Source: a virus (lineage: Duplodnaviria > Caudoviricetes). Taken from it: DNA of 31,804 nucleotides. This document shows, piece after piece, positions 1 to 23,176 of this stretch (position 1 is the stretch's first letter; each line of letters starts with the position of its first letter). The translations under genes and the position numbers were made by a program. The stretch lies in IMG/VR virus record IMGVR_UViG_3300016482_000012, positions 1-31,804 of that record. One strand, given 5' to 3'. The notes under the pieces are model-generated. The model did no database searches and was not told the origin of the DNA. It saw only the letters and a list, made by a program, of their open reading frames with translations.

Positions 1-3000
1 AGGTTCTTGATCTGGTTGTCGATCGCATTATTCAGCCCAACCAGCTTACCCAGCGGCTCGGAATTCAAGAACTCGTAGGGATTCAGGCCGTCTTTTGCCC
101 TGCCCTTGGCCTCGTTCTCGATCATGTTGATTTCGCGATTGTTCCGGTAGAACTGCTCGGCATTGCCAGTGGGTCCACGGGTATTGCCATACAGGCGCCC
201 GACCAGCGGGATCTTGTAGGCCGGCAATTCATCGCCCGTGACCATGGACGACAGACTCTGTTCCAGCTTCATCGCCTCACGGCCAACGCCGCCGGTCAGC
301 TGTCCAATCACGTAATCGATCTGATCGGGTGACGGGCTGAACCAGCCAGGGCGGTAAGCATTACCACCCGTTAGGTCATTGATCGCCTTGGCCGACTCCT
401 TACCCAAGAAGCTGGCGCTATCCTTGGCCATCGTGAAACCTGGCTTCGGATTCTGCGGGTTGTTATTCTCGCGGTAGATCGTGCGCCCCGTCCAGTCTTT
501 GTTCTCGATCAGCGCCAGCGGCAGATCAATGACGGTGGGCGCCAGCGTTTGAGCCAGCGTAGAGGATGTACCAATCGGGTTGAACGACTCGGCCAAAATT
601 AGCATCAGGTTGCCAAGATGTTGACCAGCCGTTTTCTCGTTTTTGCCCATCGCCATTTCTACAGCAATGCGGCCAATGTTCGGGAAGACGTTATAGCCCA
701 GCGGCATCGGGATTGAAACGAACTGATCGCGGCTTACCGGAATGATAAAGCTGCGTTCCTTCACAAAGTCTGGAATCTTCGCGTAGTTGTCATCGTCGCC
801 GTCGCCGCCCATGACGGCCATGGTCATCAGGGCATCCAGCGCGCCCAGCAGCACACCGCCGTACATGATCTTCTTACCCATTGGGCCGGCCAGCGTCTGT
901 GCCATTCGTGCCGTGCCCTGCATGGATGCATTAAAGAATGCATACAGCGCACTTATGGTGCCGCTCTTAGCGCCCTTACGGTTAAAGTTCACGGTCAGGT
1001 TCTTGCCAATACTGGCGGCGCGCTCTTTGCTGATACCGGAATCAATCGCAACCTTGTAGGCGGCAAGGCGTACCGCATTTTCCATGGCCGTGTTGTAGTC
1101 ATTAATCCATTCAACAGTCGGACCGATCGAATAGCCGTAAGCCGTCTTGAACAGTCGCTTTGATCCCGCCCAGACACCGGTAGCATCGTCAGCGCCTAGC
1201 TTCTTAACGATATCCTTCTGGCGCTCTTTGGCGTCAGAGAATAGTTCGCGGTAGCCAGTAGCACCGCCCATCTCCTGATACTCACGCCAAAGCGCCTGGT
1301 ATTCTTTTGTGGCTTTCGTGGCATCCTTGCCGCGCTCGCCACGGTAGATCGCGCGCATTGCCGCCGGAATCTCCTTGGCAATCGCTTTCTGCTTGCCGGC
1401 AATGGCCGTGGTGGACAGGTTCAATGCGGCACCCTGGACGTCGCGGGCGAAGTTGATGACACCAAACACCGGGTTGTACTGGGTATTGATGCTGGCGAAC
1501 CAGCGCGTACCCTTCTGCGCCAGCTTGAGCAGGCCATCGACCGAATCCATATCCAGATTCTTCATGGCCGCAGCCAGACGTACGGCGTTCGGGTTATGCT
1601 CATTAAAGACGATAGCCGTATCCACGCCGCCAATCTTGAGCATCACGACATTGGGCAGGTTCTTGTAGTTGGGATCAACGTCCCGCACCACAAAGCCGGT
1701 GCGCGGGTCGATATAGCTACGCTTCGGGCGCTCAAGTGTCCAGAACTTGTTGTCCGGATTCTGCGCTGCCAGCAGATACAGCTTCTTGGCGACAATGTTT
1801 TTCTCGCCACGGGTAACGGCAGCATTACGCTGCATCGCAATGTGCGCCAGAATGTTGGTGACCTTGGCACCGCTACCTACGCGCCGGCGTGACTCCTGAC
1901 CCTTGACGCTAAAGCCCTGTCCAATTGGGTGGCTCTTGCTATCCGGGTGTGCCTCATCCCGGTGCAGCGGCACGTAGTGCTTGTACTTGCTCTGCCATGC
2001 GCGAATCGTTTCACGGTCAGACAGCCCGTATTGCAGCTGCAAATCAAGCGTCTTGGCATTCATGGCGTCGATCTTTTCGGCCAGCTTATCCAGGGCGGCA
2101 CGGCGCTTGGCGTCGTAACCCGCCATGATCTGCTCGGCTTCCTGATCAGACATGCCGGATAGCGCCAGCCGTTCCTCTTCGGTACCGTTGAATGCCTGGG
2201 CGCCGCTCCACCGGTTCAAGTCGTCAATGGCCTTTGACAGCGACCGCTCGATGTCCTTGGTGGCGCTGCCTTCCTTGGTGGATTTGTCCAGCTGTTCGCG
2301 CAGCGCCTTGACTTCATCGCTGGCCGTCTTGCGGCCTTCGTCAATCATGGCCTGCGTCGGGTTAGCTTCTGCCATAGCAGCATTGGCTTCCGGCGCATGG
2401 CGTGCATGCAGGAAACGCTCAAACTCTTCGATACCTACGCCAGCCGTACGCATCTCGGCCAGCAGCGGCTTGAGTTCGTTTTCCTCAAACTGGTTGACGC
2501 GAGTGGCGACGCGCCCGTGATACAGCTCTTCGCCCAGATAGGCGTCATTCAAGTCGCTGATTGTTCCCTTGGTGGCCTTGATCTTCTCGCGTAACCGTTT
2601 CAGATCAATAAACTTGTCCTGATAGTTGTAGATCAGGTCGTCGTATTTCTCCGGGTTGGTCAGTTCCTTGATCTTGGCACGCGCCTTTTCGTAGCGGTTC
2701 GCAATGGTTGGGTCCGTCTCGGGAGATTCATTGTCGCCCATGGTTGACCGGCTAAAGCGGATGTCGTCGTTGCCTGCTGACAGCTTCGTATCCACCACCG
2801 TTGCCAAACGCCCTGTGCGGCCACTGCGCACCCATAAACGGGCAGCATTCACAACATCCGCCACGACCAGATCAGCCTTAGCCTGATCCGACATACCGGC
2901 CTTGGACAGTTTGTCCAGATGACCGGCGAAGGACTTGAATCCGTGATCGTTTAACCAGTTGCGGATATGCTGCACCAGACGGCGCCAGCCTTTAACCTTC

Positions 3001-6000
3001 GCCAAATCCTCCGGCGCCATCTCCACCAACACTTCTTCCGTGGCGGCGACATTGGAATCCAGCCCATATTTGTTGCGCAGCGCATTGGCTTTCTTGCGAA
3101 CGGCTGCATTGTTCATCCAGATATTGTTCATAATCGGGTCAATATCGGTGCCGAATACAGCGCGCAATCCGTAGTGCCCAACCTCGTGATTAACCAGCAC
3201 ATGCTCGGCACGGAATTCGTCGGCAATGTTATCGGCAAACAGGTAAATCTCGCCTTCGTGGGTAGCACCTTCGACATCGCCCATGGCATTGCTTGCCACG
3301 ATGCTGTCGTACAGCCGTTTGTGCGTCGGGTTGTCCAGGTTCAAATCATCCGGTTTCGCGAAAACCTGTACGTTGGGCAGGTTCGCGAGCGACTTCTTGG
3401 CACGGGTGACAATGGCATTCAGATCGCGTAGCGCGATACCGCGCCCACCGCGTCGTGATAGATCGGGATCAATGTCGCTGGCGCGGCTAAAGATGGCCGT
3501 GCCCGTATCGGTTTCTTTGGTGTTGATTACCGACACGAGTTGGTCAAATGCCGCATTGATCGCCTTGCGCTCTTCACCATGGGGATACGGACGCCGTGCG
3601 CCCCACGGCGTCAGAATGGCGATGTTTTCCGGGGCATAGTTCAGGAACGGGCTTCTTGCACCAAGTTCGGCAATCTTGTCTTCGACGTAACCCTGGAAGG
3701 CGCGCGCTGCCATTTCGTGCGGCGTCGTCCAGTAGTTTTCACCACGACCCTGATCCAGTTCCTTGGCGTTCATCGCAAAAGACGTCGGCACCTTACGCGT
3801 CTTCTTGTCGCCTTGTTGCGCCTCAGCCAGCATCTTGAGGCGCTGGCTATAGCGCTGCATCGACCGACGAAGATCATCCAGTCTGCCGCTTTGCTTGGTT
3901 GCATCAAAACCGCTGCGGCCACGCACCGCCTTGTTGATAGCGCTCAAGGCTTCCAATAGATCGTTCGACCATCGCGCACCGCTCAGACCGTACTTGCCAC
4001 GCGGGTTAGGGTTAATCAAATTGACATCCAGCGATTCGCCGTTGACGATCTTCTTGGCGATGGTGTCAAACTCGGCCAATTGTTCAGCGCTGGCCGGCTT
4101 ATTGTTGCGCTTGTAGTATCGCGGATCCTTTTGCTCAGACAGGTCCTTGCGCATCTTGTCCAGGTCTTCCGCAACCTCTTCGCGAGACACGGCCACAAAC
4201 TTGTCTGCAAGCTTCGTATCTTCCACATAGGTTTCTGCCTTGCGGAACATGGTATCCATGACATTGTTGTATGCGACACGCAGCGCCTCGCGCACCCCGG
4301 AATTGTTGTACTGGAACCCGCCGCTTGCCATGTCATTCTCGGCGCCCTTGATGTTAAAGGTACGGGTGCCGTCGGGCAGCGTCTGCCATTTTCCGGATGC
4401 CTTGCCATCCTGCCGGCCAAGGTAATGATCCAGTGCATGAAACCACTCATGCGCCAGGGCTCCGGCACCATTCATCTTGGTCAGGTTAATCACAGCACGG
4501 CTACGCTCATAGTGCGCGCGGGCACTGCTCAAGCCCTGGCCACGGGCACCAAACGCCAGCGCCAAGTCGCCATTCAAACCAATCGCCTTGGCCGGGATAT
4601 TCAAAACCTCGGCCAAATCCATGAGTCCGTCATAGGCAGCGTTCATCACCTCTTGGCGCTCAATCTGGTTATTCCAGTTGCCAAATTCAACCCCACGGAA
4701 CCCGAAGGCTTCCATGAAGTCTTTGCCTTCGACGTCGCCAGTTCGGCGCGCAACGCCAGTTCGCTTCGTGTTGTCCGGTGTCGGTAGGTCGGCTTCGCCA
4801 AACGTGGTGCTGGTTTCCAGAATCTCACGGGCATTTTTCGCCATGTATTCCATGGCGGCTGTGCGTGACGGAAATAGCTTGTCTACGACTTTGACGCGCT
4901 TCTTGTCCGTTACATCGCGCCAGATTTCATACTGGGGCTCGCCGTTTTCGTCTTTCGTGCCGGACGTGACAACACGGTGCTTCATCGCAACCGCTAATAG
5001 CGGAATAGCATCGAGCGCCTCTTGCTCGGTTGCAAACCCATTCCTGCTGCCAACAATCTGTTCTTTGCCAAGCCAGTCTTTGCTTCGGCTATCTCGGACA
5101 AGCCAACGCCCTTCATCGTCTCCTGCAACGACTTGCGACACCTTGAAGCGGCGCGCCCATGTCGGGCGATCATCCTGCGCCTTGGTCTTACCGGTGCTGC
5201 CGGTTTTGGTTGCCGTATCCTTGCGGGCGCCGCCGATCTTTTCGCCCAGATCGGTAATGGTATCGGTTGCTTTGAGCTGGATAGGTACTGACTGCTGTGC
5301 CGGTTCGGTTTCCATGGCTGCGGCGGTCTGCGCCTCGGTCATGCCCTTCTTCTGCATGTACTTGCGGGCATCGGCCTCGGTCTTGAAGACTCGCGGCGGC
5401 ACGGTGTTCATTACGCCTGGGGCATTCGGGCGGCCAGACATGACGACGCCGCCGCCATTGTCGGATTCGATCAGGAAGCCGCCTTCGGTCGGTTTGACGG
5501 CGTAGGTAAACTCGCGTTTTACGCCTTGACCGGCTCTGGTGTCGGATGCTTGCGGTTCTTGCGCTTGAGTTTTTACGGCTTGAGCGGTGCCATCGCCTTC
5601 TTGGCCTTGCGGATTGCCGTTGCCATTTTGCTGTCCTGCGGCAGCTTCGGCATTTTGGTCTGGTTGTCCATTGCCGCTTTGATCAGCTGCTCCCCGGCCT
5701 TCGTTGTCGACAGGTCGTTGTATCTCTGCCCGTCCGCCAGTAGTGTTGCCCCCAGCAGGGTTGCCGCTAAGGGGGAGTCCGAGCGTTTGACCGGTGCCGG
5801 TACCGTCTTCTGTTGGGTCATTGATCGCTCCTAGAATATCCAGCGGCGACACAGAATCGCCAAATAATCCCGCATCACCGCGGGTTTCCATTGCCGCCTG
5901 GATGTACTTGCCCAGCACGTCCAGAACGCGCTCACGCCCCTTGGCGCGAGTCAGATAGGTGCCAGTATAGAACAGGCGTAAAACGTCGATCGTCAGCGGG

Positions 6001-8366
6001 TCTGGCATGCTGCCGGTTTCCAGACTGGCCTGACGGGTCATCTCGTACAGCGATTGACGGGTTTCGCGCGACGTCCGAATCATGTTCACGGCTTGCAACA
6101 GATTGCCGGTAATATCGACTTGCGGATCAATCGCGCCAATCTCTGCCGAATCGCGCATGTTTGCCCAGCCGCCAGCTGTTAGCTTCAGCACTTCGCCAAT
6201 CGTTTTAATATCCGAGTCCAGGCTATCAAACATGGTCTCTACCAGATCAGCATCACCGTAGGCGCGCTGCACCAGCGCCGCCTGAATCCGATTGCGCCCC
6301 ATGGGGGACAGCGTACCGTCTGCCGTCAGGAATCCGGCGACATCCTGACCGGCGCCAGCCAGCTTGCCGATGAAGCCACGCACGAAATCGCGGTTCGCGC
6401 CATGCGTAATATCAACGGGTTGATACAGGCCAATCAGGCTTGAATCAATCAGCGGTGCGTCCTGTGCCGCCAGTTCGGCCGGCGACATGCCAAGGCCCTG
6501 CCCCTGACTCTTTGCGGCCATGTTCTCGGTATTGCTGGTGTCAGAATACACGCGCACCAGCATCGGGTTTTTGATCTTGGCGATTTCCTCAGCAGGAATG
6601 CCGTGCGTCTGAACGTCGGCGACCAGTTCGCGCGTATAGGCTTCGGCCTTGCCATTCTGATAGGCGGCACGAATGCCCGCCGTGCGCCCATTGTTCAGCG
6701 CCTTGATGGTGCCCGGCACTTTGGAGGAAAACTCGGGATTGACCGTGCCATCGGCAAAGTTAGACGGCTGCACCGCATTGGCATCCACTACCGCGTAGCG
6801 GAACGGCACGCGCTGGCCATCGGCCATGACGGCAATATCTTCGCTGCCCACAGCTTCCGGTTTAATCAGGCTGGGCGCATAATCGACGGCAAAGACCATC
6901 GGCGCACCGGAGTCCGGGGTACGGCTCGGGCCAAGGCGCATGTAATCCGGATTCTTGGCAATGTTCGCCATCTGAATGACCGAGGCCGTGCGGGCACGGT
7001 CACGGTTTTGCAGATCGGTCTGCACGGCGGCAGGCGCTGGCTGCGGCGCGGCATCCAGTTCGATGCCGACCGGTGCCACCGATTTGGTCGTGGCGACTGC
7101 GGCAGGGTCAATGACTGCTACGCCTTGGCTGGAAACGGGTACTTCGGCTGGTTGTCGCGGTTCTGCCGCGATGGCTTCTTGGGCTTGAGCGCCATTCTGT
7201 TGCTCCGTTGGTTGGTTGATACCTAACTGATTAAGATCAGTCGGCTGATCTTGTTCTTGTGCAGTAATCTGCGTCAGTAGATTTGCAGCTTCCTGCTGCT
7301 CGTCTGCCGTTAGTTGGCGCTGCTGACTGGCCAGCTCAATCTCTGCCAAACGGTTCAGCGGATCCACCGGCTGCGGCGGTGCCGTTTCCAACGGCTGCTC
7401 AGCTACCTGATCAGGCGCACCCACAACCGTGACGTTAGGGACCGGCTGCGCGGGATCTGCCGCGCCCTGCTTACGGTTTGCGACATAGTTATAGCCGCCG
7501 CCTACGCCGCCCATTGCAGCGCCAGCCAGCAGGCCAGTAGCGGCGGCATTGCCGACGCCTTCCATAATGGGCTTGCCGGTTGCAAAGTTCTGCCACATCT
7601 GCTCCTGCATCGATTGCGGCAATTCTTCAAAAGCACCTTCCGACATCCCAGCTTTGCCGACCTGGCTAACAAAGCCTTGAGCAGTAGCGCGTGGCCCGCC
7701 CTGTGCCAGCAGAGTATCCACATCAGCCACGCCCAGTTTCTGTGCCAGCTTGCCGCCAGCAAAACCCAGAACGCCGGTACCAATACCAGAGCCAATGGCT
7801 GACAGGGATTGTTTGGCCGTCAGCGTGCCATCAGCGGATTCGCTACGGATCTGTTCAGCGGCGCTACCTGCGCCTATGGCACCCTCACCCATTGCCCCTG
7901 CGGCGACAGCGCCAATACGCGGCGCGACCTTCAGCCCAAAACGAGCAAGGCCGGCGCCGCCCAGCATCGACGGCAGCGATTCCAGCGTGGTTGCAGCAAT
8001 CGTGCTGGGGTTCTGTACGGCAGTGGCCAGCGTGTCTGTAAAGCCTTCAGCCTCACGAACCTTGGCATTGGCTTCCTGCTGTGCTGGCGAAAGAAACGTA
8101 TCGAGATATTCCTTGGCCTGCCTCGGGTTATAGCCAATATCTTCCAGAGCCTTGCCAACCGAACCACCAGCTGGAATATCAACAAGACCTACTACGGATT
8201 CTGGTAGAGAAGTGGCGCCTTTGAGTCCTGTAATGCCGATGTCTTTAATCACATCCAGGGCATCACGATCCTTTGGCTTCTTTGGGGTTATGCCAGATTC
8301 TGCAAACAGATCCCGGCCTTCGGAGCCGACAGAAATTCCAGCTTCAGCAAATAGGTCACGCGCCAT
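1..8366 (-). CDS. Giant polyvalent virion/ejection protein (>2788 aa, 3' end beyond window) with DdrB-like ParB, LPD5-like motif, LPD1-like HEWFH zincin, second HEVGH zincin and LPD38-like C-terminal region
   Basis: ATG at 8366 with GAGGG upstream. Manual translation gives MARDLFAEAGISVGSEGRDLFAESGI... The same frame gives LQNRDR (~7000), NNGRT (6681-6695), DLGEKIGGARKD (~5220-5255), HEWFHALD (HEWFH 4437-4451), YWTTPHEMAARAFQGYV/PYPHGEER (~3570-3735), HEVGH (3174-3188) and PSPDQIDYVIGQLTGGVG (~285-340), and is still open at position 3. The ORF track lists no ORF in this frame, consistent with no stop in the window. Confidence 0.88.
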   Translation of the reverse strand, partial: MARDLFAEAGISVGSEGRDLFAESGITPKKPKDRDALDVIKDIGITGLKGATSLPESVVGLVDIPAGGSVGKALEDIGYNPRQAKEYLDTFLSPAQQEANAKVREAEGFTDTLATAVQNPSTIAATTLESLPSMLGGAGLARFGLKVAPRIGAVAAGAMGEGAIGAGSAAEQIRSESADGTLTAKQSLSAIGSGIGTGVLGFAGGKLAQKLGVADVDTLLAQGGPRATAQGFVSQVGKAGMSEGAFEELPQSMQEQMWQNFATGKPIMEGVGNAAATGLLAGAAMGGVGGGYNYVANRKQGAADPAQPVPNVTVVGAPDQVAEQPLETAPPQPVDPLNRLAEIELASQQRQLTADEQQEAANLLTQITAQEQDQPTDLNQLGINQPTEQQNGAQAQEAIAAEPRQPAEVPVSSQGVAVIDPAAVATTKSVAPVGIELDAAPQPAPAAVQTDLQNRDRARTASVIQMANIAKNPDYMRLGPSRTPDSGAPMVFAVDYAPSLIKPEAVGSEDIAVMADGQRVPFRYAVVDANAVQPSNFADGTVNPEFSSKVPGTIKALNNGRTAGIRAAYQNGKAEAYTRELVADVQTHGIPAEEIAKIKNPMLVRVYSDTSNTENMAAKSQGQGLGMSPAELAAQDAPLIDSSLIGLYQPVDITHGANRDFVRGFIGKLAGAGQDVAGFLTADGTLSPMGRNRIQAALVQRAYGDADLVETMFDSLDSDIKTIGEVLKLTAGGWANMRDSAEIGAIDPQVDITGNLLQAVNMIRTSRETRQSLYEMTRQASLETGSMPDPLTIDVLRLFYTGTYLTRAKGRERVLDVLGKYIQAAMETRGDAGLFGDSVSPLDILGAINDPTEDGTGTGQTLGLPLSGNPAGGNTTGGRAEIQRPVDNEGRGAADQSGNGQPDQNAEAAAGQQNGNGNPQGQEGDGTAQAVKTQAQEPQASDTRAGQGVKREFTYAVKPTEGGFLIESDNGGGVVMSGRPNAPGVMNTVPPRVFKTEADARKYMQKKGMTEAQTAAAMETEPAQQSVPIQLKATDTITDLGEKIGGARKDTATKTGSTGKTKAQDDRPTWARRFKVSQVVAGDDEGRWLVRDSRSKDWLGKEQIVGSRNGFATEQEALDAIPLLAVAMKHRVVTSGTKDENGEPQYEIWRDVTDKKRVKVVDKLFPSRTAAMEYMAKNAREILETSTTFGEADLPTPDNTKRTGVARRTGDVEGKDFMEAFGFRGVEFGNWNNQIERQEVMNAAYDGLMDLAEVLNIPAKAIGLNGDLALAFGARGQGLSSARAHYERSRAVINLTKMNGAGALAHEWFHALDHYLGRQDGKASGKWQTLPDGTRTFNIKGAENDMASGGFQYNNSGVREALRVAYNNVMDTMFRKAETYVEDTKLADKFVAVSREEVAEDLDKMRKDLSEQKDPRYYKRNNKPASAEQLAEFDTIAKKIVNGESLDVNLINPNPRGKYGLSGARWSNDLLEALSAINKAVRGRSGFDATKQSGRLDDLRRSMQRYSQRLKMLAEAQQGDKKTRKVPTSFAMNAKELDQGRGENYWTTPHEMAARAFQGYVEDKIAELGARSPFLNYAPENIAILTPWGARRPYPHGEERKAINAAFDQLVSVINTKETDTGTAIFSRASDIDPDLSRRGGRGIALRDLNAIVTRAKKSLANLPNVQVFAKPDDLNLDNPTHKRLYDSIVASNAMGDVEGATHEGEIYLFADNIADEFRAEHVLVNHEVGHYGLRAVFGTDIDPIMNNIWMNNAAVRKKANALRNKYGLDSNVAATEEVLVEMAPEDLAKVKGWRRLVQHIRNWLNDHGFKSFAGHLDKLSKAGMSDQAKADLVVADVVNAARLWVRSGRTGRLATVVDTKLSAGNDDIRFSRSTMGDNESPETDPTIANRYEKARAKIKELTNPEKYDDLIYNYQDKFIDLKRLREKIKATKGTISDLNDAYLGEELYHGRVATRVNQFEENELKPLLAEMRTAGVGIEEFERFLHARHAPEANAAMAEANPTQAMIDEGRKTASDEVKALREQLDKSTKEGSATKDIERSLSKAIDDLNRWSGAQAFNGTEEERLALSGMSDQEAEQIMAGYDAKRRAALDKLAEKIDAMNAKTLDLQLQYGLSDRETIRAWQSKYKHYVPLHRDEAHPDSKSHPIGQGFSVKGQESRRRVGSGAKVTNILAHIAMQRNAAVTRGEKNIVAKKLYLLAAQNPDNKFWTLERPKRSYIDPRTGFVVRDVDPNYKNLPNVVMLKIGGVDTAIVFNEHNPNAVRLAAAMKNLDMDSVDGLLKLAQKGTRWFASINTQYNPVFGVINFARDVQGAALNLSTTAIAGKQKAIAKEIPAAMRAIYRGERGKDATKATKEYQALWREYQEMGGATGYRELFSDAKERQKDIVKKLGADDATGVWAGSKRLFKTAYGYSIGPTVEWINDYNTAMENAVRLAAYKVAIDSGISKERAASIGKNLTVNFNRKGAKSGTISALYAFFNASMQGTARMAQTLAGPMGKKIMYGGVLLGALDALMTMAVMGGDGDDDNYAKIPDFVKERSFIIPVSRDQFVSIPMPLGYNVFPNIGRIAVEMAMGKNEKTAGQHLGNLMLILAESFNPIGTSSTLAQTLAPTVIDLPLALIENKDWTGRTIYRENNNPQNPKPGFTMAKDSASFLGKESAKAINDLTGGNAYRPGWFSPSPDQIDYVIGQLTGGVGREAMKLEQSLSSMVTGDELPAYKIPLVGRLYGNTRGPTGNAEQFYRNNREINMIENEAKGRAKDGLNPYEFLNSEPLGKLVGLNNAIDNQIKN
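5573..5821 (-). CDS. Putative nested (alternative-frame) 82-aa protein inside the giant gene
   Basis: AGGAG 6 nt upstream of the ATG (ctAGGAGcgatcaATG). It overlaps a low-complexity linker of the giant protein. Confidence 0.45.
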   Translation of the reverse strand: MTQQKTVPAPVKRSDSPLAATLLGATLLADGQRYNDLSTTKAGEQLIKAAMDNQTKMPKLPQDSKMATAIRKAKKAMAPLKP

Positions 8367-8399
8367 GAGTCAACACCCTCAACAGTAGTTTGCCGAGGG

Positions 8400-8415
8400 T
8401 GCCATGCTTGCCACG
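8400..8415 (-). promoter_or_regulatory. 16-bp late-region motif CGTGGCAAGCATGGCA, copy 1 (upstream of giant gene)
   Basis: Exact copy, intergenic, 33 nt before the ATG at 8366. Confidence 0.75.
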
Positions 8416-8417
8416 GT

Positions 8418-9941
8418 TTACTTCAGTCCAAGCTGCTTTCGCACAGCTTCTTTGCTGATCCCGTACTTCTTGGCGGTCGCCGCAATATCTTCTTCCGTCA
8501 CGTTTTCCAGGGGCTTCGGCGCAGCGGCTGGCTGTGCCCCGGTGTCCGGTGCGGCAGCTGGTGCAGCGGCTGCTTGTTTGACACGTGGTCCCTGAATCGT
8601 GATCGGCTGGCCGTCTGTCGGTGGCTTAACCGGGATAATGGTTACCGTGCCATCCCGCAGCTTCTGGATGACGTTGCCGCCTTGACCATACTGGTCCTGT
8701 TTGAACTCAACGCTTACGCCGTCATTGCTCTTCGGCGCGGCGTCAATCACGCCAGTACGCACGGCATTGATCTGTGCCGTCGTCGCATTCGGATTCGTCT
8801 CTTTGTACAAACCAACAGCGGCGTCACGCTTCTCCTGCCGGTCATTGCGGTTTTCGTTAAAGTTGTAGGCGGCACGGCCTTCGGACGCATTGGCGCGGTC
8901 ATTTTGTTGAATGTTGAAGAACCGATTGAATGCCTCGTTTGCCTTGCCGAGCGAGTCAAGTTCAGACACCGTATTGAGCGATCGCGTATTGCCATTGGCA
9001 TCACGGTAGGTGATCACACGGGTATTGATACCGCCCTGCCCTTTAACCATCTTGTCGGAGATAACGCTCTTCTCGTCAAACTTGGTCGTTCCGGTTTTGT
9101 TGAATTGCGCCAGAACGTCAGAAAGCGGCGCGCCACTTTGCGCCAGACGGAGGGCGGACTCATAGCCCTCGTTCTGCAATCGGGTCAGGGAGTCAGATAG
9201 TTCCCCGAACTTCTTGGCATCTAGTTTTCCGTACTTGGCATCAACGGCCAGCATCGATGCGCGGTCTGCCAGCTGGTCACCAATGGTGTAATCCGGACGC
9301 GCCGGCATGGTTGGCGGCAACCCGAGTTGCGCACCAGTTTTGCCAGAGGCTTTGGCGCTTTCGTAATCCGATAGGCTTTGCTGGTATTCACCAAGGGCTT
9401 TGTTGTACTGCTTCTGGTTCTGGCCGAAGCGCGTGCCCTGCATAGCTTGGCCAAATTCCTTCTCGTAATCCTGTTCCTTCTGGAAACGAGCTTCTTCGCG
9501 CGCACCCTGCCGTGCCTGCATTTCCATGGCGATACCCTTGATCGGGTCGCCCATGGATTTAAGCACGCCAGCCATAGCCTGATTTTTGGCGCTCAACTGT
9601 TCGCTCTCAGTTGGTGCTTTATCGTAGGTCTTGCCAAGAAACTGATACTGTTCCTTTTTCATGGTAATCGGTGCTGCGGTGCCCTCAGACCCGTCCGCTG
9701 TAAAATTCGGGGTGACAGTAACCGTGCCATTATCGCCGCGCTGCACATTGTAGAAAGCCTTGCCGCTTTCATCTTTGGCATCGGTCATTGCTTTAACCTG
9801 ATCATCTGTCCAGCCATCAGTTTTCTCGACTTCCGACCTTCCGATTTTGGCAAGCTTCGCGTCAAGTACAACATTCCGCACTGTGTTATAAGTGCTATTA
9901 AATGATGCCATTGCATCTACAATAGAATTACGACGCGGCAT
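8418..9941 (-). CDS. Probable internal virion/DNA ejection protein (~507 aa)
   Basis: Long Ala/Gln/Lys-rich ORF. Likely start is MPRRNS at 9941 with a GAGGAG RBS. It lies between the pilot-like gene and the giant gene, the usual ejection-protein slot of podoviruses. Confidence 0.65.
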   Translation of the reverse strand: MPRRNSIVDAMASFNSTYNTVRNVVLDAKLAKIGRSEVEKTDGWTDDQVKAMTDAKDESGKAFYNVQRGDNGTVTVTPNFTADGSEGTAAPITMKKEQYQFLGKTYDKAPTESEQLSAKNQAMAGVLKSMGDPIKGIAMEMQARQGAREEARFQKEQDYEKEFGQAMQGTRFGQNQKQYNKALGEYQQSLSDYESAKASGKTGAQLGLPPTMPARPDYTIGDQLADRASMLAVDAKYGKLDAKKFGELSDSLTRLQNEGYESALRLAQSGAPLSDVLAQFNKTGTTKFDEKSVISDKMVKGQGGINTRVITYRDANGNTRSLNTVSELDSLGKANEAFNRFFNIQQNDRANASEGRAAYNFNENRNDRQEKRDAAVGLYKETNPNATTAQINAVRTGVIDAAPKSNDGVSVEFKQDQYGQGGNVIQKLRDGTVTIIPVKPPTDGQPITIQGPRVKQAAAAPAAAPDTGAQPAAAPKPLENVTEEDIAATAKKYGISKEAVRKQLGLK

Positions 9942-11052
9942 TTTTAATCTCCTCAAACGGGACGTTAATCAGGGCATAGTCCACGCTGGCAAAGCCAAGG
10001 TCGTCGTACACCACAGCATCCGGAACCAGCGTCTCCACTTCATCCGACATGACGCCAATAAACTTACGGTCTGGGCTACCGATATAGTTAAACTCGTACA
10101 GGTTAAATCGGTCAGATTCATCGCGTCCAACCAGAACAATATTTTCCTTGAGGCGGCGATCAGAAAACGCCGTAGCCAATCCAGCGACAGCGCCAGCGCC
10201 GCCCATGATTTGCGAGAACGGGCTTTGATAGTTTGCGGCTTGCGACGAGTAGACGCTATTGAGCCCGTTGGCATAGCTCGTCTGCGAACTAAGAACATTT
10301 CCAAGCCCTGATAGCTGCATACCCAGACCTTGCTGGATAGTATTTGTTCCGGCATTCAATCCATTCAAATAACCAGCGGCATTCTGCTGCTGGGTGCCAG
10401 CCGCGCTATTGCCTGCCGTCGTACCCGCCTGATAGAAAGTCGGCGCGCTCGAACCGAGGCCGGCATAGGTGTTGTAGACGTCGCCTAGCTTGCCGTAATA
10501 CTTATCACCCGCCTGGGTACGCGCGGCATTGGACGACGCAACCTGGCTCTGCGCACCCGCCACGGCGGCAGACGTACCCAGTGATGCCAGCTTGGCCGGT
10601 GACCAGCCATACCGTGCGCCCTGACGAATCAGCTGGTTCATCTGTTGCGTTGTGCCCTGACGGGAATCGGCAATGGCTTGCGCCGAGGCTTCGTTCATCT
10701 GGCGCTGTTTGATCGCGCTGGTGACACCCAGCGCCTCATCGCGCAACAGCTGCTGAATCGGACGGCCTTCGTTCTGGAAAGTGTTGTAGTTCTGCACGCC
10801 CTGCTGATACGACTGCTCCATCAGCTTGGTCTGTGCATCAATGATCGGCTTAGTCGTTTCGCGCGTCAGGTCATACTGGCGTTTGGCTTCGGCAATCTGT
10901 TCGCGGCCTAGCGCGTCTGAAATGGCGGCAGCTTGTGTCGATGCATTCGCCAGTGATGAATAATCCGGTGCTGCCGCACATGCGCAGTCGCAATCAAAGA
11001 TTCCGTGAAGCCCACCGAAGGGCAATAGCTTGGATTTGAGATAAGAGATCAT
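9928..11052 (-). CDS. Probable pilot/ejection protein (374 aa) with N-terminal CDCAC-APDY motif and C-terminal peptidase S74-like (intramolecular chaperone) domain
   Basis: Start re-called at ATG 11052, which overlaps the radical SAM stop (ATGA) and has an AAGGTGG RBS. The body is Ala/Gly/Gln-rich. The C-terminal FSDRRLKENI...YEFNY...FIGVMSDEV...VDY matches the S74 pattern. Confidence 0.72.
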   Translation of the reverse strand: MISYLKSKLLPFGGLHGIFDCDCACAAAPDYSSLANASTQAAAISDALGREQIAEAKRQYDLTRETTKPIIDAQTKLMEQSYQQGVQNYNTFQNEGRPIQQLLRDEALGVTSAIKQRQMNEASAQAIADSRQGTTQQMNQLIRQGARYGWSPAKLASLGTSAAVAGAQSQVASSNAARTQAGDKYYGKLGDVYNTYAGLGSSAPTFYQAGTTAGNSAAGTQQQNAAGYLNGLNAGTNTIQQGLGMQLSGLGNVLSSQTSYANGLNSVYSSQAANYQSPFSQIMGGAGAVAGLATAFSDRRLKENIVLVGRDESDRFNLYEFNYIGSPDRKFIGVMSDEVETLVPDAVVYDDLGFASVDYALINVPFEEIKNAAS

Positions 11053-12323
11053 GCTGCCACCTTCATCATAATGACTCGGCGGGACGCTCCTGGTCTCCAA
11101 CCTGAAATAGAACAAACTTTTTGCCCGGTCAAAAGGGTAATCACCCCTTCCAATATGGCGCGGTTATACCAATACGATGCTTTGCACGAGGATGTAAAGC
11201 CTTCGCCATCAAGAAACATGCAGGATCCGTAGCACAAATGCACCACCGGGCAGCGGTTACAGTCCGGCCGGACGGCAAACGATCGGCTTGTATTGAGCGT
11301 CACGCCATCCAGATTCTTGACGCTGCCAATCCGGTGACCAGACTCAGCGCCGGCGTTCTGGCAGGTCAGTACATTCCCGTGCAGATCGACGGCTAGCTGT
11401 TCGCGCCGATCCATGCCGCAAACCTGATGCGACCCGCCAAGCGGCTTGGCAATCGCCAGCGACTCCATGAACTGCATGGCGCTCCACCGTAGCCGTGGGA
11501 AAGCCAGCGCTAGCCCTGATTCAGTTTGCGCCTTGATCGTGCCGTACATGGCCTGCAGCTGGTCATCCGTCCACTGTGCGCCGCCGTAATCGGTCACGAT
11601 GTCTTCAATGTTGACCCGAACTTCAAAGCCCATCCGATCTTCAAACCAGAAGAACGTTTGCGCCAGATCAAAATTCAGCGGGGTAATGACGGTATTGAAG
11701 GTTATCCGGTTACCGAATAGCTTGAATACGTCGCGGATCATGGCAAGCCATACCGGATCGTTAAACGGGTCGTCGCCACGCAGTGCCTGCCCGGGGCCAT
11801 CGTGCGAGACGGCTACGGTAAACCCGTGCCGATATAACCATTCGGCCTTCTCCGCCGTCAGCAACGTGCCATTGGTGACCACCGACATGGCGGCATCTGG
11901 GAAACGGGCTTTGAGCGCCGGCACCAGATACGCCAGCTTCTGCCAGTACAGCATAGGCTCGCCGCCCCAGAACTCAATTTTGGCGGGATGTTCGTGCAGC
12001 CAGCTATCCAGCTGGTCAATAAAGCGTTCAGCGTCCTTGTTGCTGGTCAGCGTTGGTTTCTGGCCGCCCTGCGAACAGTAGCTGCAGGTGTAGTTGCACC
12101 CAAGACCGAGTTGAATTTTCAGGATTCGCGGCTGGTCTTTGCCGACCACCGGATTCTCCGGCGAGAATGCCGCCTGACCGTTATCGCCACGGACGCCATC
12201 GATGTACGGATACGCAAAACGATTGAGCGGCACGCGCTCGCCGGAAGCATCCAGCAGCAACGATGGATCGGTATCGTAGGTCAGGCGCCGCCCGTCTTCA
12301 AGACTGATTTCAAACTGTGCCAT
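11049..12323 (-). CDS. Radical SAM protein with SPASM domain (424 aa)
   Basis: CxxxCxxC (CNYTCSYC), FWGGEP and VTNGTLL. The C-terminal C-x13-G-x4-C ... C-x2-C-x5-C-x3-C-x11-C is the 7-Cys SPASM signature. Confidence 0.95.
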   Translation of the reverse strand: MAQFEISLEDGRRLTYDTDPSLLLDASGERVPLNRFAYPYIDGVRGDNGQAAFSPENPVVGKDQPRILKIQLGLGCNYTCSYCSQGGQKPTLTSNKDAERFIDQLDSWLHEHPAKIEFWGGEPMLYWQKLAYLVPALKARFPDAAMSVVTNGTLLTAEKAEWLYRHGFTVAVSHDGPGQALRGDDPFNDPVWLAMIRDVFKLFGNRITFNTVITPLNFDLAQTFFWFEDRMGFEVRVNIEDIVTDYGGAQWTDDQLQAMYGTIKAQTESGLALAFPRLRWSAMQFMESLAIAKPLGGSHQVCGMDRREQLAVDLHGNVLTCQNAGAESGHRIGSVKNLDGVTLNTSRSFAVRPDCNRCPVVHLCYGSCMFLDGEGFTSSCKASYWYNRAILEGVITLLTGQKVCSISGWRPGASRRVIMMKVAA

Positions 12324-12332
12324 AGTGCCCGC

Positions 12333-12740
12333 CTACGCCTTTAGCCACTTGCATTGATGCTTCCAAATCACCAGATAGACCGAATCGCTGCCGTCGTGCG
12401 CTGCCTTTGACAAGCGGCCCTCTTCCCGAAAGCCCAGCGCATCATCAAAATTCAGCGCCTCGTCATTCGAGGCCGCGACAATGGTGGTCATGCGGGGCGC
12501 GCCCATCGTCACAAAGGGGTGGATCATCAGTGCCCTGATAAATCCGGGGGTTGCCCACCGCTTTGTGCCATCGCTACACCCGTGGAAAAAGACATTGTGG
12601 CCATTGAAGCGCTCGTAGATTGCGCCGGCAATGATCAGCCCGTTTTCTTCCAGCCCCACCGCCGTACACGGCACGCGAATCCTGCCAATCTGAGATTCGA
12701 CAAACTCGGTCACCCTGGAATCGTGAACAATCCGCTTCAT
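12333..12740 (-). CDS. GNAT-family N-acetyltransferase (phage tail-region type)
   Basis: 135 aa with the RimJ/L-like C-terminal pattern ASNDEALNFDDALGFREEGRL. It follows the tail genes, as is common in podoviruses. Confidence 0.8.
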   Translation of the reverse strand: MKRIVHDSRVTEFVESQIGRIRVPCTAVGLEENGLIIAGAIYERFNGHNVFFHGCSDGTKRWATPGFIRALMIHPFVTMGAPRMTTIVAASNDEALNFDDALGFREEGRLSKAAHDGSDSVYLVIWKHQCKWLKA

Positions 12741-12750
12741 ATCGGCAGAC

Positions 12751-12766
12751 TGCCATGCTTGCCACG
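12751..12766 (-). promoter_or_regulatory. 16-bp motif, copy 2 (upstream of GNAT-radical SAM block)
   Basis: Exact copy, intergenic, 10 nt before the ATG at 12740. Confidence 0.75.
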
Positions 12767-12771
12767 GCGAC

Positions 12772-12963
12772 TTATTGCAGTACGCCGATGATTTGATTGA
12801 TTTTTTTGATCACGTCAGCCAGCGTTGCGTCATCCGGTAGCCTATCCAAACGGGTGGCGATACCGCGCTGACCGGTAATCTGTTCCAGTATCTCTTTGAT
12901 GGCGGCATCAAACTGCCCGCGCTGCGGGTCAATTGGTGCCTGCGGAATGGCGCGCTTGGTCAT
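12772..12963 (-). CDS. Small hypothetical virion-associated protein (63 aa)
   Basis: ATGA overlap with the upstream tail gene and a natural-looking sequence ending ATLADVIKKINQII. Confidence 0.7.
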   Translation of the reverse strand: MTKRAIPQAPIDPQRGQFDAAIKEILEQITGQRGIATRLDRLPDDATLADVIKKINQIIGVLQ

Positions 12964-14741
12964 ATCTCGGCCAGCCCACGCTTGGTTTCGGCAATCTTGA
13001 CCGACTTGACGCGCACATTGCCCACCAGACGGATCGACAGGATGTCACTCTTGTAGCCGGACGGCAGGCTGAATGCCTCGTTGCTGAATACGCTCTTGGT
13101 GAAGATTTCCCCGTTGCGGCCGTAGACGGTAACCGATAGGCTTTCGCGCTCGACGCCACGCGGGCGCACCAGATGCGAGCCATTGATGGTCATGCCATTG
13201 AATCGCTCGTTATTGAATGCGCCGACCTGTACAGCGCCATTGATAACCGACTGATTGAAGGCGATGTCCGCCAGATAGTTAGCCTCTTCCTGAGCGACAT
13301 CGGCCTGCGACATGAGCGAGGCAAACTCCACCTTGGCGGCGCCAAAGTTCATCGGCGTCGGAAACTCAAATTCCTTGGACAGCCAGTTAAATACCATGCG
13401 CATGCCGTACCCGGCGTCCCACCGATCGACAGAGTAGCCGACCAGATAGAGTAAGCCCGTTGTCGGGTCTACATACAGCCCCGTCGGCGACAGGTTATAG
13501 CGCACCAGTGACGCGGTTTCGCCGGGGTTGATAACCATCAGTTGCGTGGTATTGCCGGGCTTGGTATAGGCCACAAACACCATGCCCTCGGCATAGGCGC
13601 ACACCATCTGTGACGGATCCAGCGGCCACCACTCTTCCTTGGTGTACAGGTTCTTGGTGAACAAGTCTTGGCCGGTTGAGCCGATATAGGCCAGCCCGTT
13701 CGTCGTGGCGTAGATCACGCCATCGCCTACCGACGTCATGCTGCGTTTCGACAGGCACGGCCATGCCTTGTCGATACTGTTATCCATGGTCACGACAGAC
13801 GGATCAGAACCAACGGCGACGACCGGCTTGGCCGACGTGCCCACCACAACGGTGGTGCCGAAGTTATCCACGGCAACAATCGGGAAATCAGTACCGTAGC
13901 GGTAAGCCGACGGCCATGCATGCGGCTGATACGGTTCGCTATAGCACAGCAGATTGCCCGAGAATCCGACCAGCGACCCATTGGGCAGCGCCATGATGCC
14001 TTTAAGATCGGCCGGCGGTGGCAACCAGTCGGCGCTAATCAGTTCGTCGCCAAGAATGGCGGCATCGCTCAGGTTGTCAGACCAGCTACCCGTAGATACC
14101 GGGCGCTCGGCAACCAGCTGCATGGAAGCAGATGTGCCCGTGGTCCGGTACAGGCGATGATGCAGCCCCGTCTTGCGCCACGGCGCGTCGCGGGTATCCG
14201 TCGGCAGGTCATTCAGATTGGTAATCAGCCACGCGCCATCGACCGCGCCTGATACGATGTCCGATACGGCAGATGGTGCCGATTCTTCGCCGGTATCCGG
14301 ATGATAGTAAGTGACGCAGTAAATCCGGTTGATCACGCTACCGGCACCGCCGGATACGGTCACGGTAGGTTTGTTGGTGGGCGCAGGCAAACCGATGGCG
14401 TAGGCGCTGGCGCCGAATTCGTCAAAGGTTGCGTAGCGCGGGCACCCTTCCCCCGTCCAGTAATAGCGGGGCGATACGTCAGCGCTGAATGGCGCCTTGG
14501 CCACGTCAATGTCGTCGTCCCAGGCGAACCACTTCTCTTTGCCGTTGTAGACAGCGCGATAGGCAGACTTCTTCGGGTTGCCGCCGGCGGGTGCGTACAC
14601 CATCAGCGGTGGCCGAATCGGGCGAATCTCGCCGGACGTCAGGTTGATATTCTCTGCCTGTTGTGCGGCAAGGTCAGGCAGCAGGCGCTCCGCCGTACGC
14701 GGCACCTCCGCCTGAAATCCAACGAGTTTTAATCCGGCCAT
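12960..14741 (-). CDS. Tail protein, probable nozzle/tail tubular (beta-propeller-type), 593 aa
   Basis: Size, beta-rich composition, YSEPYQPHAWP motif and position before the GNAT/ejection genes. The family call is inferred. Confidence 0.65.
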   Translation of the reverse strand: MAGLKLVGFQAEVPRTAERLLPDLAAQQAENINLTSGEIRPIRPPLMVYAPAGGNPKKSAYRAVYNGKEKWFAWDDDIDVAKAPFSADVSPRYYWTGEGCPRYATFDEFGASAYAIGLPAPTNKPTVTVSGGAGSVINRIYCVTYYHPDTGEESAPSAVSDIVSGAVDGAWLITNLNDLPTDTRDAPWRKTGLHHRLYRTTGTSASMQLVAERPVSTGSWSDNLSDAAILGDELISADWLPPPADLKGIMALPNGSLVGFSGNLLCYSEPYQPHAWPSAYRYGTDFPIVAVDNFGTTVVVGTSAKPVVAVGSDPSVVTMDNSIDKAWPCLSKRSMTSVGDGVIYATTNGLAYIGSTGQDLFTKNLYTKEEWWPLDPSQMVCAYAEGMVFVAYTKPGNTTQLMVINPGETASLVRYNLSPTGLYVDPTTGLLYLVGYSVDRWDAGYGMRMVFNWLSKEFEFPTPMNFGAAKVEFASLMSQADVAQEEANYLADIAFNQSVINGAVQVGAFNNERFNGMTINGSHLVRPRGVERESLSVTVYGRNGEIFTKSVFSNEAFSLPSGYKSDILSIRLVGNVRVKSVKIAETKRGLAEI

Positions 14742-14759: not shown

Positions 14760-14999
14760 TTACGCGAAATCTGCCTTGCTAAACCCGAAACGCTCGATCG
14801 TGGTAAGGTCTTCAACGTCCGTCCAGATCGGTTCCAGCTTGGGGCCCGTGTACTCGGGTTTGTTGTAATCCGCCGGATACGACTGCATATCCTGCTTGCG
14901 GGTCATGCTGCCCTTCAAATAGGCCATGAACTGATCGTGGCGCGGCGTACCCATGGTGGCATCCAGATCGGCACGGGTGTTAATGATATGCAATTCCAT
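14760..14999 (-). CDS. Hypothetical protein downstream of the DGR reverse transcriptase (79 aa)
   Basis: Overlaps the RT 3' end by 20 nt and fills the gap to the tail gene. Confidence 0.7.
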   Translation of the reverse strand: MELHIINTRADLDATMGTPRHDQFMAYLKGSMTRKQDMQSYPADYNKPEYTGPKLEPIWTDVEDLTTIERFGFSKADFA

Positions 15000-15966
15000 A
15001 GCGGTTCTCCATCCAGTTAAAAAGATTGCAGGTATCAGCCCATTGAGCGTGCCCGCTCCACGAACCCATAAACTTGGTCAGGTTGTCATACTCGCCACGA
15101 GAGACGAACCGCTTGACCTTGCGCTTGGCGCGAATCACGGAATCCTTGCGCAGCAGCTTGTAGTCTTTCCAGATGCGGTAGCCCAGAAAGTTGACGCCGT
15201 GGCTGACCGGGTGCGCGTGCCAATGGCTGATACGCATCCCCAGGCGATCCATCGAAAACTCCTGAATCCTGCAGAACTGATCGCGTAGCCGGTGGATGTC
15301 GTTATCGAGAATCACGATGTCATCCATATAGCGCGCCCAGTACGGGCACTTCAAATCGAAGTGGATAAACCGATCGGCAATGCCGCCCACCAAGTTGGCC
15401 GTTAGCTGACTGGTCAGACTGCCGATGGGAATGCCGCACCCACCATCCGGCGGAATGATTTCCGCAATGATGTCCATCGTCCGATAACAGCCGATCTTGT
15501 TGCCGTACATCGATACCGCCAGATTGCGGTTGATGCTCGGAAAGAACTTGCTGTAATCGGTCTTGAGAAAGTGCGTAACCTCGGGACGCCGCAGCCTGGA
15601 CTGCACAAAGCGCACGCCGGCATGTGTGCCAAATCCCGTGCGACAGGCAAAGGTATAGGGCAGCAGCGATGACTCCATAATGGGGCCGACGATGTTGCAC
15701 AGGGCGTGCTGCACCAGCCTGTCTTTGAAGTCGAGGGCGGAAATCAACCTGACCTTTGGTTCGCGCACCGTGAAATGGCGGTACTCGCCAATCGTGTATC
15801 CGCCATCCAGCAGTTCTTCCCGGATTAACGACAGGTTGACCGCCGAATACTCCTTGAATTCCAGACAGCCATACGTGCCACGCTTGCCCTTGGATGTCTT
15901 GCGATACGCAATCTCCATGTTTTCCGGGCTGGCAATCTGATCGATCAGTCGTTTTTTTCGCTTCAT
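14980..15966 (-). CDS. brt: DGR reverse transcriptase (328 aa)
   Basis: YMDD catalytic motif, KTDYSKFFPSI, DGR-type GIPIGSLTSQ (SQ rather than SP) and GVNFLGY. It lies 152 nt downstream of TR. Confidence 0.96.
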   Translation of the reverse strand: MKRKKRLIDQIASPENMEIAYRKTSKGKRGTYGCLEFKEYSAVNLSLIREELLDGGYTIGEYRHFTVREPKVRLISALDFKDRLVQHALCNIVGPIMESSLLPYTFACRTGFGTHAGVRFVQSRLRRPEVTHFLKTDYSKFFPSINRNLAVSMYGNKIGCYRTMDIIAEIIPPDGGCGIPIGSLTSQLTANLVGGIADRFIHFDLKCPYWARYMDDIVILDNDIHRLRDQFCRIQEFSMDRLGMRISHWHAHPVSHGVNFLGYRIWKDYKLLRKDSVIRAKRKVKRFVSRGEYDNLTKFMGSWSGHAQWADTCNLFNWMENRYGIAYH

Positions 15967-16118
15967 GGGGAGTTGTCGGGCTCGCCGTTCGATACGTCCT
16001 ACCAGGCGCTATCCCAAACCAAGTAGCGTGTTTCCCGAAGGGGGACAGGTCCGGCTGACCACAGGGATGTGAATCTGCCTGCTGCGCCGTAGCCACAGCA
16101 GAGCGGTGTTTCGTTGTC

Positions 16119-16235
16119 GTCACAGACGAAGCGCGAACCGATGTTGTTGTTCGAGTTCGAGGCAGCGTTGTTCCAGTTCGAGCAGCGCGAGCCGCAATTC
16201 GACCCGTTGTCCCAGTTGCCGCCGAAGATGACCGC
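16119..16235 (-). repeat. DGR template repeat (TR), 117 bp
   Basis: Aligns without gaps to 16663-16779 with 8 mismatches, all A on the TR coding strand. It has 24 adenines, 20 of them in ten AAC/AAT codons. Confidence 0.97.
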
Positions 16236-16236
16236 T

Positions 16237-16614
16237 TCATTTCCCAGCCTGCCCTATGCCTTTATGTCGCTTGATCCAGGCGTTGAGCATGGCGCCGACT
16301 TCGGCCACGAGTGCCTGAGACGTCTCCAATTGTTTCTTGCTCAACATCCGGTGCTTGAACATAAAGCGCAACCATCGACGCAAGACCGCCAGCCCGCGAT
16401 CTGCGTCATAAATTTTGCTGATCTGATTCGATTTACCCGCGATGTAAAACAACTCGGCCTGATCTAGCAGCGTATCCAGCGCCTTATTCTTTGCTCGGCC
16501 ATGTTTGCTCGGGATGCTTTGCATGATCGGATACAGATAGTCTTCCACCCGCTCGAATTTCTCGACGATGGCCATCTGATCAAAACACATGGAAGCATCA
16601 CGAATTGGCTGCAT
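16237..16614 (-). CDS. avd: DGR accessory variability determinant (Avd, four-helix bundle), 125 aa
   Basis: Basic helical protein between VR and TR, with an Avd-like pattern KSNQISKIYDADRGLAVLRRWLRF...EVGAMLNAW. Confidence 0.92.
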   Translation of the reverse strand: MQPIRDASMCFDQMAIVEKFERVEDYLYPIMQSIPSKHGRAKNKALDTLLDQAELFYIAGKSNQISKIYDADRGLAVLRRWLRFMFKHRMLSKKQLETSQALVAEVGAMLNAWIKRHKGIGQAGK

Positions 16615-16623
16615 GGCTGTTCA

Positions 16624-16643
16624 ACAAGGGCTTTCGCCCTTGT
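16624..16643 (-). promoter_or_regulatory. DGR target-recognition hairpin/cruciform downstream of VR
   Basis: Minus strand ACAAGGGC-GAAA-GCCCTTGT is a perfect 8-bp stem with a GAAA loop, 1 nt after the mtd stop codon. Confidence 0.88.
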
Positions 16644-16644
16644 C

Positions 16645-22975: not shown

Positions 22976-23176
22976 CTATGGTTTGCAATCTGCCATGCTT
23001 GGCACGGCTTTGCCTGAACGTGAATCCTTTTTTTCAATCATCACATCGCGTGGCGCAGTGACGCGCAAGCGCGCCAACTGCCCACTCTTTTGCACCAGTT
23101 CAACGGTGGCGCCACCAGACAAGGCCAGGGCTTCCCCAGGCCTGACGTCAATGATGAGTCTCGACATACGCGACAT
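22976..23176 (-). CDS. CsrA/RsmA-like small protein (66 aa)
   Basis: LIIDVRPGEALAL.GGATVELVQKSGQLARLRVTAPRDVMI parallels CsrA [41 protein letters not shown]. TGATG overlap with the scaffold stop. Confidence 0.7.
   Translation of the reverse strand: MSRMSRLIIDVRPGEALALSGGATVELVQKSGQLARLRVTAPRDVMIEKKDSRSGKAVPSMADCKP
22991..23006 (-). promoter_or_regulatory. 16-bp motif, copy 3 (upstream of major capsid gene, 1 mismatch)
   Basis: CGTGCCAAGCATGGCA, inside the 3' end of the CsrA-like gene, 83 nt before the capsid ATG. Confidence 0.7.

Follow-up and report, generated by a model that had tools for sequence, protein, structure and literature searches.

The window analysed here is the entire 31.8-kb virus record IMGVR_UViG_3300016482_000012 (31,804 nucleotides; Caudoviricetes). 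Its minus strand encodes a radical S-adenosylmethionine (SAM)/SPASM enzyme and, overlapping with it, the first of three predicted DNA ejection proteins, which carries near its N-terminus the seven-residue motif DCDCACA, referred to as the tag. Sequence comparison and structure models indicate that the enzyme and the tag are a real and conserved candidate enzyme-substrate pair, which is probably thioether-forming. It is quite likely that the tag is the substrate of the enzyme, and the chance that the product is a Cys-Asp thioether seems slightly better than even; on balance, we favour the reading in which the enzyme modifies the DCDCAC tag, probably as Cys-Asp thioether rings.

Peptides and a few cellular proteins are the known targets of radical SAM thioether chemistry, and no paper on the radical SAM modification of a phage virion protein was found in the literature searched, which left out most subscription journals. 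Under the favoured reading, a phage protein would be injected with a cross-link made by an enzyme, which would be a new layer in the building of the podovirus entry channel, and the large, uncharacterised PHROG 1802 family would obtain a function. Consisting of a seven-residue tag and one enzyme, the system lends itself to a direct test in E. coli; its fibre form is present in the cultured Achromobacter phages JWF and 2-1, which are open to virion mass spectrometry.

The enzyme and the tagged ejection protein

An initial annotation, made from the sequence alone, had described a full radical SAM/SPASM gene inside the virion operon, 9 nt after a GNAT gene and overlapping a pilot- or ejection-like gene by an ATGA, and our analysis bears it out: the gap is 9 nt, and the shared ATGA lies at 11049-11052. 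The enzyme combines the CxxxCxxC motif (C76, C80 and C83) and GGEP of radical SAM proteins with seven SPASM cysteines (302, 321, 355, 358, 364, 368 and 380), within the seven to eight expected of this domain. All ten cysteines are invariant in 29/29 and 37/37 aligned homologues, and so is the GGEP motif. The enzyme scores above the cut-off of PF04055 as well as that of TIGR04085 (29.3 bits versus 27). It matched 894 proteins in a large protein collection; a scan of viral contigs with the single protein returned nothing, and homologues were recovered by alignment-based searches.

The 374-aa ejection protein has, as also annotated initially, only three cysteines, C21, C23 and C25, encoded at 10978-10992. 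Since the two large downstream frames (512 and 2787 aa) are devoid of cysteine, this cluster stands out. The assignment as an ejection protein likewise stands, based on the match to PHROG 4287 ('DNA ejection protein', E=7e-12) and the position at the head of a three-gene block. The C-terminus contains a Peptidase_S74 domain (PF13884, E=3.5e-6), no solved structure matching the body was found, and no 19-residue window of the protein exceeds a hydropathy of 1.2. Searches found 216 homologues, and the tag counts below cover the 120 listed ones; no cultured phage with a full-length homologue was found. A three-Cys ladder, i.e. a run of alternating cysteines, occurs in 29/120, and all 29 read DCDCACA; several of these are near-copies of the window's protein, yet the tag is identical while protein bodies drop to about 40% identity, and its codons vary synonymously in nine loci.

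Co-occurrence of the tag and the enzyme

A confinement of the tag to phages that carry the enzyme had been suggested as a check on the initial annotation. We tabulated loci with ejection homologues of at least 180 bits and at least 1.8 kb upstream, which gave 44 rows after the removal of duplicates. Eight rows have the tag and an adjacent enzyme, 35 have neither, none has the enzyme only and one has the tag only (Fisher p=5e-8; rows are related). Two loci fell outside the table by these filters: L135, whose flank is short, with tag and enzyme, and L013, scoring 172 bits, where a tag-free ejection gene adjoins a GNAT gene and the enzyme lies 4 kb upstream beside a fibre ladder. A scan with the DNA pattern of the tag, blind to the enzyme, returned 36 loci, five of which encode a tagged ejection protein, with the enzyme directly upstream in 4/5. 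The enzyme was found anywhere in 0/7 tag-free records of 97-100% completeness, while 3/3 positive controls showed it. Indirect support comes from contig sizes, as 9/10 ejection homologues are tagged where the longest contig equals that of an enzyme homologue in size.

On a tree of 93 ejection-protein bodies, built without the N-termini, the tag needs 14 changes and the tagged bodies are not one clade; holding 18 tagged rows together was rejected by the approximately unbiased (AU) test (p-AU 1.7e-38) on a 55-row subset from which 16 distant or long-branch rows had been dropped. Tag-free bodies at 57-61% identity are nearer to the window's body than many tagged ones (45-51%), and a single branch (7 rows, support 91) holds the enzymes adjacent to tagged genes. 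Because the tag is invariant yet scattered on the body tree, the enzyme and the tag either move as a cassette or were repeatedly lost; the tree fits repeated gain and repeated loss alike.

Cysteine ladders in the wider enzyme family

The pairing is not limited to ejection proteins. Among 203 enzyme loci, the 128 with at least 4 kb upstream were used for ladder counts, and a ladder of at least three alternating cysteines lies near the enzyme in 107 of them, versus 4/80 control loci; after clustering, ladder-bearing loci number 65/83 at 90% and 34/46 at 70%. An antisense control gave 15/128, a value that is confounded, as TGC-AAC repeats, when read on the opposite strand, themselves code for Ser-Cys runs. 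The ladders either occupy a C-terminus, precede a Hint domain or lie at the N-terminus of an ejection protein. Judged by these patterns, the usual partner of the enzyme, which the initial annotation missed, is an (Asn-Cys)n ladder at the C-terminus of fibre-like proteins, and the ejection tag would thus be a relocated form of a wider system. Cultured phages provide examples: Achromobacter phage 2-1 has CNCDCNCSC followed by a Hint-like start, two genes upstream, a side fibre of Ralstonia phage RSP15 ends in NCQCGN, and Achromobacter phage JWF has the fibre form.

Loci missed by the three-Cys count comprise two-Cys forms, a phage clade of 3 rows in a neighbourhood of oxygenase-like genes, and an apparently chromosomal clade of 11 rows. 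In loci of this chromosomal appearance (L136-L138, L144-L146, L149, L157, L160, L163, L175 and L186), short frames lie upstream whose TSDC-like motifs make them possible peptide substrates. At L194:7297-7743, a family enzyme is directly followed by a Gly-rich collagen-like protein with a second, unrelated ladder at its N-terminus (MGMCLCDCQC...).

Predicted modification

The predicted structure of the enzyme (predicted local distance difference test score, pLDDT, 87.6) is closest to CteB (5WGG; VIA Z 20.3, root mean square deviation 4.6, 350 aligned; Foldseek E=1.5e-13), followed by ChlB (Z 19.3), anaerobic sulfatase-maturating enzyme (anSME, 17.6) and TigE (17.2), with viperins at Z 13.5. Together with the TIGR04085 score, this CteB-like fold supports the initial assignment to the peptide- or protein-modifying SPASM type. 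The N-terminal 60 residues are modelled as three strands without the helices of a full recognition element (RRE; 3 strands + 3 helices) of systems for peptides that ribosomes synthesize and that are modified post-translationally (RiPP); this domain modelled alone has no fold match above Z 2.7, while the overlay of the whole model on CteB begins at residue 1. Among NCBIfam models, PapB scores best (E=2e-21), with 76.6 bits, far under the cut-off of 340 (NF047865). The models for anSME (TIGR03942, 49.7 bits versus 349) and CrpC (TIGR04463, 40.6 versus 525) as well as those for HxsB/HxsC are also far from their cut-offs, and no sulfatase was found among the 29 window proteins scanned.

The composition of the ladders suggests where the acceptor lies. 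Asn or Asp precedes the first Cys in 94/106 distinct ladders, versus 17/106 two places earlier and 49/106 at the last X; with one ladder per 70% enzyme cluster, the values are 34/42 for the first and 20/42 for the last position (17:3 discordant, p=0.003). Internal X residues are N/D/A/Q in 92/102, and X positions of ladders also include Val, Arg, Tyr and Phe. In the tag, the registers D20xxC23 and D22xxC25 are kept in 29/29 among the matches listed, and the last X is Ala.

We propose that the enzyme binds not a long leader but the short junction G-[LI]-F-D-C, that the 5'-deoxyadenosyl radical would abstract the beta-hydrogen of Asp, and that the Asp radical would couple to a Cys held on an auxiliary cluster by an NxxcB-type mechanism (see below), yielding predicted thioether rings C23-D20 and C25-D22. 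The modification would take place inside the infected cell, ahead of packaging. Less supported steps are that the leader may be removed, that the GNAT, in an older step of its own and as in enzyme-free relatives, may acylate the N-terminal region, and that the rigid tip may help the first-ejected protein to anchor at, or survive in, the host envelope.

Alternative explanations

Several points weigh against the favoured reading, which is predicted from sequence, a structure model and co-occurrence. The rows of the locus table include kin (L010 and L324 are alleles, L293 and L306 near-identical) and four positives that were found via the enzyme; since enzyme and tag are adjacent, a single crossover near the conserved APDY would move both, so that physical linkage alone could produce the 2x2 table. 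Tree and adjacency thus point to a cassette, not to catalysis. L133, inside the close enzyme clade, has no GNAT or tag within ~600 bases downstream, and 21/128 enzyme loci are without a three-Cys ladder. No NCBIfam maturase model reaches its cut-off for the enzyme, and the anSME fold is nearly as close as that of CteB. The ladder polarity is only a trend, and an adjacent (i-1) acceptor fits equally well. Furthermore, the tag-only row, L289, is a satellite-like element of 16.9 kb (16,866 bases) that encodes an integrase, AlpA, a DnaB helicase and three ejection-type genes; among the five of its open reading frames scanned, there is no enzyme, GNAT or evident capsid gene. As L289 carries the 16-bp motif found ahead of the window's GNAT gene, it is plausible that a helper supplies it with the enzyme in trans.

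Action of the enzyme on the tag by some other chemistry is rather unlikely, though far from negligible. Sactionines, Cys-Cys or inter-chain thioethers that staple an oligomer, an anSME-like thioaldehyde or formylglycine, and the preparation of a metal site all come into question, given that anSME is the third-ranked fold family and that ladder X positions extend to Val, Arg, Tyr and Phe; moreover, fibre tips of some phages are trimers with axial metal sites. However, an Asn or Asp before the first Cys would not be needed by a Cys-only chemistry, and it is retained. Seven rather than eight SPASM cysteines also leave an open iron as in the thioether synthases described in the accessible part of PMC13692751.

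The initial annotation went further, taking the ~20-aa N-terminus as a leader and suggesting that the GNAT may acylate the processed N-terminus. In full, such a pathway would be a RiPP-like assembly line of GNAT, enzyme and dedicated leader, with the enzyme recruited by the leader and the Cys core, once processed, capped by the GNAT. The GNAT is indeed present in 11/11 enzyme-ejection loci, G-[LIF]-F-D precedes the tag in 27/29 tagged homologues among the matches listed, and the three-stranded N-terminal domain of the enzyme overlays the start of CteB. But the GNAT is also present in 27/35 enzyme-free ejection loci, and identity to the window's GNAT is 31-83% beside the enzyme and 23-36% without it, so that the divergent enzyme-side GNATs (31-33%) are no closer to the window's. 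As for the leader, 28/29 listed tagged proteins have 19-37 residues before the first Cys and a truncated one has 11, but L135 starts with MDCDCAC (2 residues) behind a clear ribosome site and L324 with MSGLFDCDCAC (6 residues), and leaders of at least 20 residues before the PDY motif occur in 59/87 tag-free homologues among the matches listed. A conserved RiPP leader is therefore not what we see; the 2-37 residues diverge, and only G-[LIF]-F-D is retained. In P22, whose gp7 loses 20 N-terminal residues to host OpdA, their deletion costs little according to the available part of PMC8402733. We consider this assembly line improbable, and of the initial interpretation the link between enzyme and tag stands, while the dedicated leader and the GNAT role have mostly fallen away. 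Because the GNAT is common in enzyme-free loci, the enzyme would have been inserted into an older GNAT-ejection pair, of which, by gene content, the GNAT is the ancestral neighbour; acylation of the ejection protein by it is possible.

Even less probable, in our opinion, is a passenger role of the enzyme, whose target would then be a nucleotide, a host protein or some other protein of the virion, with the tag a hitchhiking disulfide or metal motif. The physical linkage of enzyme and tag, the tagged but enzyme-free L289, family members without any ladder, and the viperins among the fold matches would be in line with it. Hitchhiking at one locus, however, does not explain why ladders accompany the family in proteins and at positions that are unrelated (at fibre C-termini, ahead of Hint domains and at N-termini), and no further CxCxC was found in the virion genes of the window. 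The CDC of a 155-aa head protein (21265-21732, TCDCS near the start) was considered as a second substrate and rejected, as it is found in two enzyme-free genomes too.

Genomic context and the slot before the ejection gene

By gene content and order, the minus strand of the window holds a podovirus late region, with a terminase, a P22-like portal, a PF13252 capsid, adaptors, an Mtd fibre and a tail protein, after which the GNAT/radical SAM/ejection block and two large ejection-type genes follow (Table 1). Metagenome contigs from 4 runs (wastewater or unlabelled) span the whole GNAT/enzyme/ejection block. The profile of the GNAT matches GNAT structures with E=1e-6.

Table 1. Position of the enzyme, the tag and neighbouring features in the window.
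Feature	Position	Strand	Evidence or remark
Giant polyvalent third ejection-type protein	3..8366	-	ddrB-ParB, LPD1, LPD38; without Cys; runs off the window
Second predicted ejection protein, without Cys	8418..9941	-	position and size; no family match
First of three predicted ejection proteins, 374 aa	9928..11052	-	PHROG 8003/6121/4287, gene order
DCDCACA tag (D20-A26), predicted substrate	10975..10995	-	identical in 29/29 tagged homologues
N-terminal 19 residues of ejection protein, ending GIF	10996..11052	-	variable leader, length not conserved
Radical SAM/SPASM enzyme, 424 aa	11049..12323	-	PF04055; PHROG 1802 E=2e-51
Seven-Cys SPASM domain (C302-C380)	11184..11420	-	TIGR04085 above cut-off
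CxxxCxxC radical SAM cluster motif (C76, C80, C83)	12075..12098	-	no variation in either enzyme alignment
GNAT acyltransferase, 135 aa	12333..12740	-	PHROG 4470 acyl-CoA N-acyltransferase E=5e-31
16-bp repeated motif	12751..12766	-	ahead of GNAT; likely late-promoter/activator site

The initial annotation also noted that the block has its own copy of a 16-bp motif. The copy is there, but it is not special to the block, as the same slot is preceded by the motif in the enzyme-free phages L209 and L210. The motif, GTGGCAAGCATGGCA at 12751-12765, occurs 5 times in the window when up to 2 mismatches are allowed, versus 0.21 expected, and copies of 15-16 bp stand ahead of late gene blocks at 8400, 12751, 22991, 24501 and 28958. 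A CsrA-like 66-aa gene (22976-23176) overlaps one of these and may encode the activator of the motif. No sigma-70 promoter was found in window positions 8300-13100.

Other genes occupy or enter the same slot in related phages. A DDxxD protein of PHROG 21390 replaces the GNAT in 5/35 enzyme-free loci; such proteins were seen at L209:5475-5975, L212:5422-5895, L218:1223-1678, L244, L261, L326 and L210:4700-5890, in the last of which the protein is seemingly fused to a methyltransferase. With weak isoprenyl-synthase look-alikes in Atlas (score 0.78-0.79), it is a candidate for a possible alternative lipidation of the ejection protein. An Asp/Asn beta-hydroxylase gene (L130:1074-1598, PF05118, E=2e-33) lies between the GNAT and radical SAM genes, and its candidate product could act on the same Asp residues of the tag. 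In L010 (7284-7649), an intein-like insert (122 residues) lies precisely at the junction of GLFD and CDCAC, a position at which splicing would restore the sequence of L324, the insert-free allele. This insert has C1, TxxH, a terminal Asn and a +1 Cys, with weak matches to TIGR01445 (E=0.015, under cut-off) and NEQ068 (E=0.067); a similar one in P0194 ends before CAC, ahead of the C23 equivalent.

Elsewhere in the window, a complete diversity-generating retroelement (14980-17763) comprises the Mtd fibre with its variable repeat (16660-16779), Avd, a template repeat (16116-16235) and a reverse transcriptase, and a Tad2-like anti-Thoeris domain (PF11195, E=6e-25) is encoded at 31044-31580.

Taken more broadly, and with the odds somewhat against it, the enzyme and the ladder might be a portable 'tag and staple' module, in which an (Asx-Cys)n ladder (Asx, Asp or Asn) is grafted onto the virion protein that first meets the host. 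Such a module would have been relocated from fibre tips to the ejection N-terminus, exchanged as a cassette among ejection lineages and, in the case of a satellite, borrowed in trans. The slot would be a hotspot at which tailoring enzymes (GNAT, DDxxD protein, methyltransferase, Asp/Asn hydroxylase and radical SAM) replace each other; in this way, the DNA-delivery channel would become chemically diverse at its tip, as part of an arms race with envelope defences.

Comparison with known systems

The window's enzyme resembles CteB in that CteB is its best fold match and has a seven-Cys SPASM domain, but the two share only 17% identity, and the N-terminal domain, modelled with three strands but lacking the helices that a full RRE has, may set it apart from both CteB and PapB. 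Substrates of the ranthipeptide enzyme PapB carry a Cx3D spacing, which is absent from the tag, where the i+4 residues of C21, C23 and C25 are C, A and P.

In its substrate pattern, the system is close to the streptococcal radical SAM RiPP pair NxxcB/NxxcA. NxxcB, also a SPASM enzyme, links Cys with Asn at the beta-carbon of the latter and accepts Ala, Gln or Asp as well, a set of acceptors that matches the ladder X set (PMC9389541, as far as its available part goes). However, its substrate is a short peptide with one ring, whereas the predicted substrate here is a 374-aa virion protein with overlapping registers, and the likeness is one of substrate pattern. A whole protein as substrate is known from Methanococcus voltae, where CrpC makes ranthionine links in the adjacently encoded CrpA; this system is archaeal and has C-x-x-Q/D repeats with the Cys before the acceptor, whereas ours is viral and the acceptor appears to lie ahead of the Cys. 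The supplements of the same paper list further Cys-rich proteins beside such enzymes, which could include phage cases (PMC13692751, accessible part).

Like P22 gp7 and T7 gp14, the tagged protein is encoded at the head of an ejection block whose three genes increase in size, but the likeness rests on position; it differs by its 374 aa, its Peptidase_S74 tail and its Cys tag, and the portions available of the two sources describe no radical SAM partner of gp7 or gp14 (PMC8402733, PMC8954989). Finally, the HXS anti-phage system is similar in that a protein at the DNA-entry step is matured by radical SAM enzymes. As described in the part available of PMC13128918, it comprises two enzymes and an effector of bacterial defence that bears His-x-Ser repeats, and thus stands on the opposite side of the conflict.

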